This document shows, one piece after another, positions 1 through 232 of a DNA stretch of 232 nucleotides. The position numbers and the translations under genes are program-made. The stretch is from Escherichia coli (GTDB taxonomy: Bacteria; Pseudomonadota; Gammaproteobacteria; Enterobacterales; Enterobacteriaceae): assembly GCF_003334405.1 (NCBI RefSeq), contig NZ_QOWM01000075.1. One strand, given 5' to 3'. The notes under the pieces are model-generated. The model was given only the letters and a program-made list of their open reading frames with translations, searched no databases and was not told the origin of the DNA. Each line of letters opens with the position of its first letter. Within the stretch, counting starts at the first letter, position 1.

Positions 1-76
1 GTCCCCTTCGTCTAGAGGCCCAGGACACCGCCCTTTCACGGCGGTAACAGGGGTTCGAATCCCCTAGGGGACGCCA
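1..76 (+). tRNA. gltT: tRNA-Glu (anticodon UUC), complete, with genomically encoded 3' CCA
   Basis: The cloverleaf can be folded directly from the sequence. Acceptor stem: 1-7 gtcccct pairs with 66-72 aggggac (7 bp), with discriminator g73 and CCA at 74-76. Anticodon stem: 28-32 ccgcc pairs with 40-44 ggcgg (5 bp), loop 33-39 ctttcac, anticodon TTC at 35-37 (reads GAA/GAG codons). T-arm: 49-53 agggg pairs with 61-65 cccct, with the canonical T-loop ttcgaat at 54-60. A short D-arm lies around 10-26. The 76-nt length and the sequence match my recollection of E. coli tRNA-Glu. The gene symbol is uncertain among the rrn-operon paralogues (gltT/gltU/gltV/gltW), which cannot be told apart from this window. 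Confidence 0.96.
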
Positions 77-109
77 CTTGCTGGTTTGTGAGTGAAAGTC
101 ACCTGCCTT

Positions 110-149
110 AATATCTCAAAACTCATCTTCGGGTGATGTTTGAGATATT
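110..149 (+). promoter_or_regulatory. boxB-like stem-loop of the rrn spacer antitermination module (RNA hairpin)
   Basis: Seen in sequence: 111-120 atatctcaaa is the exact reverse complement of 139-148 tttgagatat (10 bp, plus a110-t149). A 2x2 internal mismatch follows (121-122 / 137-138). The inner stem is 123-127 tcatc pairing with 132-136 ggtga (one G-U wobble), capped by a TTCG tetraloop at 128-131. Its position immediately 5' of a boxA-like motif matches the boxB-boxA arrangement described for rrn leader and spacer regions. Confidence 0.55.
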
Positions 150-161
150 TGCTCTTTAAAA
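150..161 (+). promoter_or_regulatory. boxA-like antitermination element (binding site for the NusB-NusE/S10 complex in rRNA antitermination)
   Basis: The sequence tgctctttaaaa at 150-161 closely matches the rrn boxA consensus (TGCTCTTTAACA-like). It sits directly 3' of a hairpin, as expected for the spacer boxA of rrn operons. Confidence 0.7.
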
Positions 162-190
162 ATCTGGATCAAGCTGAAAATTGAAACACT

Positions 191-208
191 GAACAACGAA
201 AGTTGTTC
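191..208 (+). other. Predicted RNA hairpin with GNRA tetraloop in the pre-23S spacer (possible processing or folding element)
   Basis: Seen in sequence: 191-197 gaacaac is the perfect reverse complement of 202-208 gttgttc (7 bp), closing a GAAA tetraloop at 198-201. Its function is not established from the sequence alone. Confidence 0.4.
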
Positions 209-232
209 GTGAGTCTCTCAAATTTTCGCAAC

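Follow-up and report, generated by a model that had tools for sequence, protein, structure and literature searches.

General features of the window

We studied a 232-base stretch of Escherichia coli DNA, hereafter called the window, that carries on its plus strand a tRNA-Glu gene, two hairpins (H1 and H2), a boxA motif and, in its 3' third, a match to the RNA family StyR-44. The tRNA-Glu(UUC) gene occupied positions 1-76 and was called by both ARAGORN and the Rfam tRNA model RF00005, the latter with 60.1 bits over 1-73 (gathering score 29); RefSeq also annotates the matching copies as tRNA-Glu. The anticodon ttc (UUC in the RNA) lies at 35-37 within the anticodon loop CUUUCAC (33-39), the 3' CCA is encoded at 74-76, and the cloverleaf was the minimum free energy fold of 1-76. 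This segment was identical to the E. coli genes gltT, gltU, gltV and gltW. The rest of the window (77-232) folded at -42.8 kcal/mol (z = -3.67), and none of 200 shuffled sequences folded as well. An earlier reading of these letters, made without database searches (the sequence-only reading), had proposed a tRNA-Glu(UUC) gene followed by a structured non-coding spacer and had expected a covariance model to call the tRNA at 1-76; the two tRNA searches and the fold of the downstream segment bore this out.

Neither strand of the window contained an ORF of at least 27 amino acids, in agreement with the sequence-only reading, which had found no ORF of meaningful length; the longest, on the minus strand, had 26. 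Four small ORFs of 20-26 amino acids, all on the minus strand, were considered and rejected: they overlap the tRNA or conserved RNA structures and had nothing else in their support. The window had also been said to lack repeat periodicity, and we found no tandem repeats in it. The direct repeats amounted to a single two-copy pair of 10 nt, and the inverted repeats to the hairpin at 110-149 (H2, see below) and the palindrome of the tRNA T-arm. No promoter-like or terminator-like site was detected in the window.

Copies in complete genomes and the rrn context

Megablast searches located the window in 5425 of 5426 complete E. coli genomes, at a median of seven places per genome, and in 4,983 matching records the best place was at least 99% identical to it. 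In E. coli K-12 MG1655 there were four full-length copies. Those in the Glu-type spacers of rrnC and rrnE (the gltU/gltV regions) showed no difference from the window over all 232 bases (100% identity), and the nearest variants after these were the spacers of rrnB (98.3% identity, 4 mismatches) and rrnG (93.1% identity, 16 mismatches, mostly compensatory within the 110-149 hairpin). The three remaining operons, rrnA, rrnD and rrnH, have Ile/Ala-type spacers and held partial copies covering positions 148-232; these last 85 bases were 100% identical to the window in rrnA and rrnD and 98.8% identical in rrnH. The region had been described earlier as multi-copy by virtue of the Glu-type spacers. 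This stands for the window as a whole, present in four of the MG1655 operons, and has to be amended for its last 85 bases, which are common to all seven.

Every MG1655 copy, full or partial, sits between annotated 16S and 23S genes, and in each copy with a tRNA-Glu gene examined (MG1655, ER1709 and CFT073) the annotated order was 16S, tRNA-Glu and 23S on one strand. The layout of rrnC and rrnE, shared by ER1709, was 16S, 85 nt, tRNA-Glu, 193 nt and 23S; 85 nt thus separate 16S from window base 1, and 37 nt separate base 232 from 23S. The rrnB, rrnG and CFT073 operons had a like architecture with other spacer lengths. The window itself comprises no 16S or 23S sequence, and its rrn context is taken from the identical copies in complete genomes. 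The rRNA flanks of these copies and the multiple copies per genome place it among the Glu-type rrn spacers, and the 16S and 23S flanks that the sequence-only reading had predicted were found around every copy examined. A single copy outside an rrn operon, flanks devoid of rRNA genes and a missing tRNA-Glu call were each looked for, and none of the three was found. The window is thus almost certainly the tRNA-Glu half of the Glu-type 16S-23S internal transcribed spacer of an E. coli (or Shigella) rrn operon.

Two variant spacers were observed in the course of these comparisons. The CFT073 rrn operon next to aroE/yrdA (locus L002, 3001-3364) has a chimeric spacer that is Glu-type up to the equivalent of window base 174, where the terminal 16 nt of tRNA-Ala (CCGCATAGCTCCACCA) take over, followed by the complete Ala-type trailer and another boxA. 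It therefore has two boxA copies, and the distance from tRNA-Glu to 23S is 288 nt, 95 nt longer than the 193 nt of rrnC; recombination between a Glu-type and an Ala-type spacer seems to have produced it. In rrnH, tRNA-Ile and tRNA-Ala are 42 nt apart, and this interval (locus L007, 3459-3500) contains a hairpin, AAAUUUGCacgGCAAAUUU, in whose 5' arm the anticodon loop sequence of tRNA-Ala, UUUGCAC, recurs.

Window ends and assembly ambiguity

Window base 1 and base 232 fall exactly where the K-12 rrn copies (loci L003-L006) diverge from one another. Upstream of base 1 there were two unrelated spacers between 16S and the tRNA, one of 85 nt in rrnC and rrnE and one of 171 nt in rrnB and rrnG; after base 232 there were two variants, beginning ACGATGATG and TCTGAAGTG, that differ by a 9-nt indel. 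Because both ends coincide with these divergence points, the window suggests a collapsed repeat contig, i.e., a node of the assembly graph. In a wider set of 117 Glu-type loci from draft genomes (see below), 65 were contigs shorter than 1 kb, which shows that assemblies routinely leave the Glu-type spacer as an orphaned repeat contig, and one of the 117 was also exactly 232 bases long. The warning of the earlier reading that assembly can be ambiguous here was well founded.

Records labelled as phage or plasmid

A few database matches raised the alternative that a mobile element (phage or plasmid), and not a chromosomal rrn operon, is the source of the window. Two records named as phages, 'Escherichia phage ECO111 5-P' (OR844775.1) and 'Staphylococcus phage SA 1298 Kay' (OR850364.1), were 99.6% and 96.6% identical to the window, near-identical matches occurred in a plasmid collection, and ten places in the complete E. 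coli genomes lay on records labelled as plasmids. Nevertheless, both 'phage' entries lack annotation and carry the tag UNVERIFIED_ORG; they are contigs of 5386 and 1627 bp, respectively. The first (L138) aligned with rrnC at 99.1% identity over its positions 427-5386 and the second (L139) at 96.9% over its whole length; therefore, both are fragments of a bacterial host rRNA operon, and OR850364.1 is enterobacterial despite its Staphylococcus label. Many of the matching 'plasmid' records measure 4-5 Mb, the size of a chromosome, and against the labelled exceptions stand 37,973 chromosomal places out of 37,983. With the 'phages' aligning to the rrnC operon and the 'plasmids' often chromosome-sized, we rejected a phage or plasmid source for the window, which we regard as extremely improbable, and retained the chromosomal rrn spacer. 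Fragments of rrn operons thus stand under wrong labels in public phage and plasmid collections.

Two other records of this sort were noted. KM209255, a clone of 'Dickeya phage phiDP10.3', is also a 16S-tRNA-Glu-23S fragment. A Pasteurella multocida 'plasmid' of 34.6 kb (NZ_CP020348.1, L137) carries a 16S-tRNA-Glu-23S stretch as well; in its spacer (2577-2620), a single short hairpin separates the tRNA from a variant boxA, TGTTCTTTAAAAA, after which comes the conserved segment GGAAACAAGCUGAAAAA.

Spacer boxA and the hairpin preceding it

The spacer boxA, TGCTCTTTAAAAA (UGCUCUUUAAAAA), is located at 150-162 on the plus strand and was an exact pattern match where 0 were expected by chance. It agrees with the consensus UGCUCUUUA (PMC6614797), and the same pattern search found the same motif, TGCTCTTTAACAA, in the leader upstream of 16S in rrnC. 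Directly 5' of boxA, in the position of a boxB, lies the 40-nt hairpin H2 (110-149, plus strand), which was detected as an inverted repeat, as a local fold and by covariation. Its stems pair 110-120 with 139-149 and 123-127 with 132-136 around a UUCG loop (128-131), and it folded at -17.9 kcal/mol (z = -5.7).

To compare this region among bacteria we scanned a genome collection with a pattern composed of the tRNA-Glu 3' end, 55-85 nt and TGCTCTTTAA, which yielded the 117 draft-genome loci mentioned above. The 82 distinct spacers among them, together with the window, rrnB and rrnG, made up an alignment of 85 rows (A1), from Enterobacterales and a few Aeromonadales. The boxA was unchanged in all 85 rows, in part because it had been built into the search pattern. 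Taking H1 and H2 together, 86.5% of the alignment cells were paired versus 28-42% in slid controls, 21 of 23 pairs changed on both sides, and none of 500 shuffles reached the observed covariation score. For H2 alone, both partners had changed in 15 of 16 pairs, 88% of cells were paired, and the loop sequence was highly variable. The rrnG spacer is an example: its H2 apical stem is kept by compensatory changes, from UCAUC/GGUGA to AGACU/AGUCU.

The spacer thus has a boxA and a hairpin immediately 5' of it, two members of a nut-like site, and H2 is the candidate boxB. The sequence-only reading had spoken of antitermination-like elements after the tRNA, and the exact boxA with its covarying hairpin substantiates that description. 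In the rrn leader, the nut-like site has the same boxA core, UGCUCUUUAA, and a hairpin that ends 3 nt before boxA, so that leader and spacer hairpins both end 0-3 nt 5' of boxA. The two sites differ in that boxA ends with AAA in the spacer and CAA in the leader, and in that the leader hairpin is unrelated in sequence to H2. Inspection by eye of the window 3' of the spacer boxA revealed no boxC-like motif (GUGUGGG, or the leader's GU-rich UGUGUGGG); in its place there is a conserved segment, CUGGAUCAAGCUGAAAA, that pairs with the 23S trailer (see below). The Ile/Ala-type spacers also carry a hairpin directly 5' of boxA, different in sequence from H2 and with a lambda-boxB-like loop (GCAAA or GAAAA).

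The spacer nut-like element was reportedly the specific subject of studies by Berg et al. in 1989 and by Pfeiffer and Hartmann in 1997. By analogy with published rrn work, the spacer boxA would act as a NusB/NusE-binding element that confers resistance to Rho termination. According to that work, each of the seven rrn operons has boxA and boxB elements in its leader as well as in its spacer, and the rrn antitermination complex nucleates at boxA, where NusB/NusE bind (PMC6614797; PMC8632103).

StyR-44 and the 23S leader-trailer helix

The sequence-only reading had expected Rfam to return tRNA-Glu alone. This did not hold, since a second family, StyR-44 (RF01830), was called on the plus strand at 154-232 with 93.4 bits (gathering score 54), the match being cut at the 3' end of the window. 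Window 154-232 corresponds to model positions 1-79, and the family runs 28 model positions further 3'; in rrnC the 107-position family was matched at full length (124.9 bits) at 4589-4697 of locus L003, equivalent to window 154-262. The additional match agrees with the earlier rrn-spacer interpretation because the family itself is the 23S leader of rrn operons: Chinni et al. (2010, PMC2943607) place StyR-44 upstream of 23S in each of the seven operons, as an rrn-derived fragment present seven times.

The same bases are complementary to the 23S trailer. An RNAcofold of the rrnC 23S flanks gave one long helix (-103.9 kcal/mol), in which window segments 161-166, 169-171, 173-182, 214-220 and 225-229 pair with the 23S-5S spacer at L003 7629-7663; when the 37 nt beyond the window end are included, the pairing extends over L003 7599-7663. 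Between these segments, window 187-211 remained a local hairpin with a GAAA loop (198-201). We then examined an alignment (A2) of 29 Enterobacterales operons with both 23S flanks available. The outer leader-trailer helices were 83-89% paired, and the whole structure 90%, versus 34-46% in slid controls. About 10-17% of the cells were unpaired, a part of which may be alignment error in the variable 23S-5S spacer. Covariation in the outer helices was modest, most pairs being conserved on both sides, and compensatory changes were few (e.g., U-A to C-G and U-A to A-U). Given the cofold pairing with the 23S trailer and its retention across the 29 operons, window 161-229 (plus strand) is predicted to supply the 5' strand for the outer portion of the 23S leader-trailer (processing) helix. 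Cleavage of this helix by RNase III is established for E. coli rrn operons; the RNase III site and the part of the helix nearest the mature 23S ends lie just beyond the window end.

In both A1 and A2, many Enterobacterales (Citrobacter, Pantoea and others) had a longer hairpin, about 30 nt larger and with a conserved CUCCGUAAUAAGA apex, instead of the GAAA-loop hairpin at 187-211, and the flanking segments AAGCUGAAAAUUGAAAC and GAGUCUCUCAAA stayed conserved.

The StyR-44 call could also be taken to mean that 154-232 encodes an independent regulatory small RNA with targets of its own, beyond its place in the 23S leader. The family is a curated one and strongly matched, the local fold of the region has a z of -2.4, and a species of roughly 109 nt, regulated by growth rate, was seen on northern blots of Salmonella Typhi and E. 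coli (PMC2943607). The discoverers nonetheless described it as processed from longer precursors and left it possible that it is a metastable maturation intermediate (Chinni et al. 2010, PMC2943607). Other observations likewise speak for the leader: the window showed no promoter-like site, the family match in rrnC stops 8 nt before the annotated 23S start, and the bases in question are those that pair with the 23S trailer. The 3' end of StyR-44 is presumably close to the RNase III cut site that has been reported. We therefore consider an independent small RNA very unlikely and treat 154-232 as 23S leader.

The trailer hairpin H1 and the tRNA-Glu anticodon loop

The first hairpin, H1 (83-107, plus strand), is situated in the 3' trailer of the tRNA and was identified by folding and by covariation on the 85 spacers of A1. 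It has outer pairs between 83-85 and 105-107, an inner stem of 88-91 with 99-102 and a 7-nt loop, GUGAAAG (92-98). All four inner pairs and two of the three outer pairs changed on both sides, while the GUGAAAG loop was kept in 76 of the 85 rows, which are all the Enterobacterales rows. It was also found in one Dickeya/Pectobacterium and one Serratia spacer with quite different stems. H1 was absent from the Aeromonadales and Pasteurella spacers examined, which carry the same tRNA-Glu, and the Ile/Ala-type spacers of E. coli are without an H1-type hairpin. GUGAAAG, which includes the Glu codon GAA, is perfectly reverse-complementary to CUUUCAC, the anticodon loop of tRNA-Glu (33-39). A literature search retrieved no description of H1 or of a pairing between its loop and the anticodon loop, GUGAAAG being matched only in unrelated siRNA and miRNA papers.

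This complementarity raises the question of whether the H1 loop forms a kissing interaction with the anticodon loop, either in cis within the pre-rRNA or in trans with mature tRNA-Glu; such a pairing would guide the spacer tRNA in its folding or processing, or would serve to sense the tRNA. The match is 7 out of 7 and covers exactly both loops, with a duplex energy of -6.5 kcal/mol, and the anticodon loop is the single place where CUUUCAC is found on the transcribed strand of the 9-kb rrnC locus. The loop is also invariant in the 76 Enterobacterales rows despite its covarying stem, and is kept in Serratia and Dickeya/Pectobacterium. On the other hand, the 7-mer arose somewhere in 3.8% of dinucleotide-preserving shuffles of this A-rich spacer, in which GAAA-type motifs abound, and the hairpin is missing in Aeromonadales and Pasteurella in spite of the same tRNA-Glu. 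The anticodon loop itself never varies and thus offers no covariation with the H1 loop. The match could therefore be due to chance in an A-rich spacer, and the evidence does not separate pairing from coincidence; we hold the kissing interaction to be a doubtful possibility, with perhaps a slim chance of being right. The same slight likelihood attaches to the idea that GUGAAAG is kept because of its pairing with the anticodon loop, as a built-in 'codon' for the spacer tRNA.

Complementarity between a trailer loop and the anticodon loop was also tried as a general rule for the tRNAs of rrn operons and was rejected, as it fails for tRNA-Ala, Ile, Asp, Trp and Thr; this failure also counts against a real pairing of the H1 loop. 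For tRNA-Ile, Asp, Trp and Thr, no complement of the anticodon loop was found within 200 nt. In E. coli, the loop of the Ala-type hairpin (UGCAAA) is complementary to 6 of the 7 bases in the anticodon loop of tRNA-Ala; other bacteria have GAAAA there, which presumably resembles the boxB loop of phage lambda and not an Ala codon. A metagenome scan for Ala-type spacers yielded 10 loci, with 7 distinct sequences plus 1 E. coli rrnH variant, too few for covariation statistics.

Proposed working of the spacer

Nus-factor binding, antitermination and the cleavages by RNase P, RNase E and RNase III within the window are transferred here from published rrn work, and the scheme that follows is to be read in that light. 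The window would be transcribed as part of the long pre-rRNA, from which tRNA-Glu (1-76) would be cut out. The nascent RNA would then present the hairpin at 110-149 and, right after it, boxA at 150-162, which together form the spacer's putative version of the nut-like site. Here the rrn antitermination complex, NusB/NusE included, would load onto RNA polymerase, and the site may in this way reload or reinforce the Nus-factor complex for the 2.9-kb 23S gene, so that it is transcribed fast and without Rho termination. From about position 161 onward, the transcript would act as the 5' strand of a helix that closes only once the 23S 3' trailer has been made. This leader-trailer helix would join both 23S ends for RNase III cleavage, and the leader piece so released would be what was cloned as StyR-44.

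Significance

The content of the window is already known: it is ordinary housekeeping sequence and, biologically, textbook material, with its spacer tRNA, a second place for the rRNA antitermination complex to load and the beginning of the 23S processing helix. Its practical meaning lies in its being a high-copy, nearly invariant repeat of 232 bases that collapses in short-read assemblies, and matches to this spacer should never be taken to indicate a mobile element or a new locus. The exception to the familiar picture, if true, would be the pairing of the H1 loop with the anticodon loop. It could affect the folding or excision of tRNA-Glu, or couple rRNA synthesis to tRNA, and it would constitute a new cis element in a very well-studied operon.
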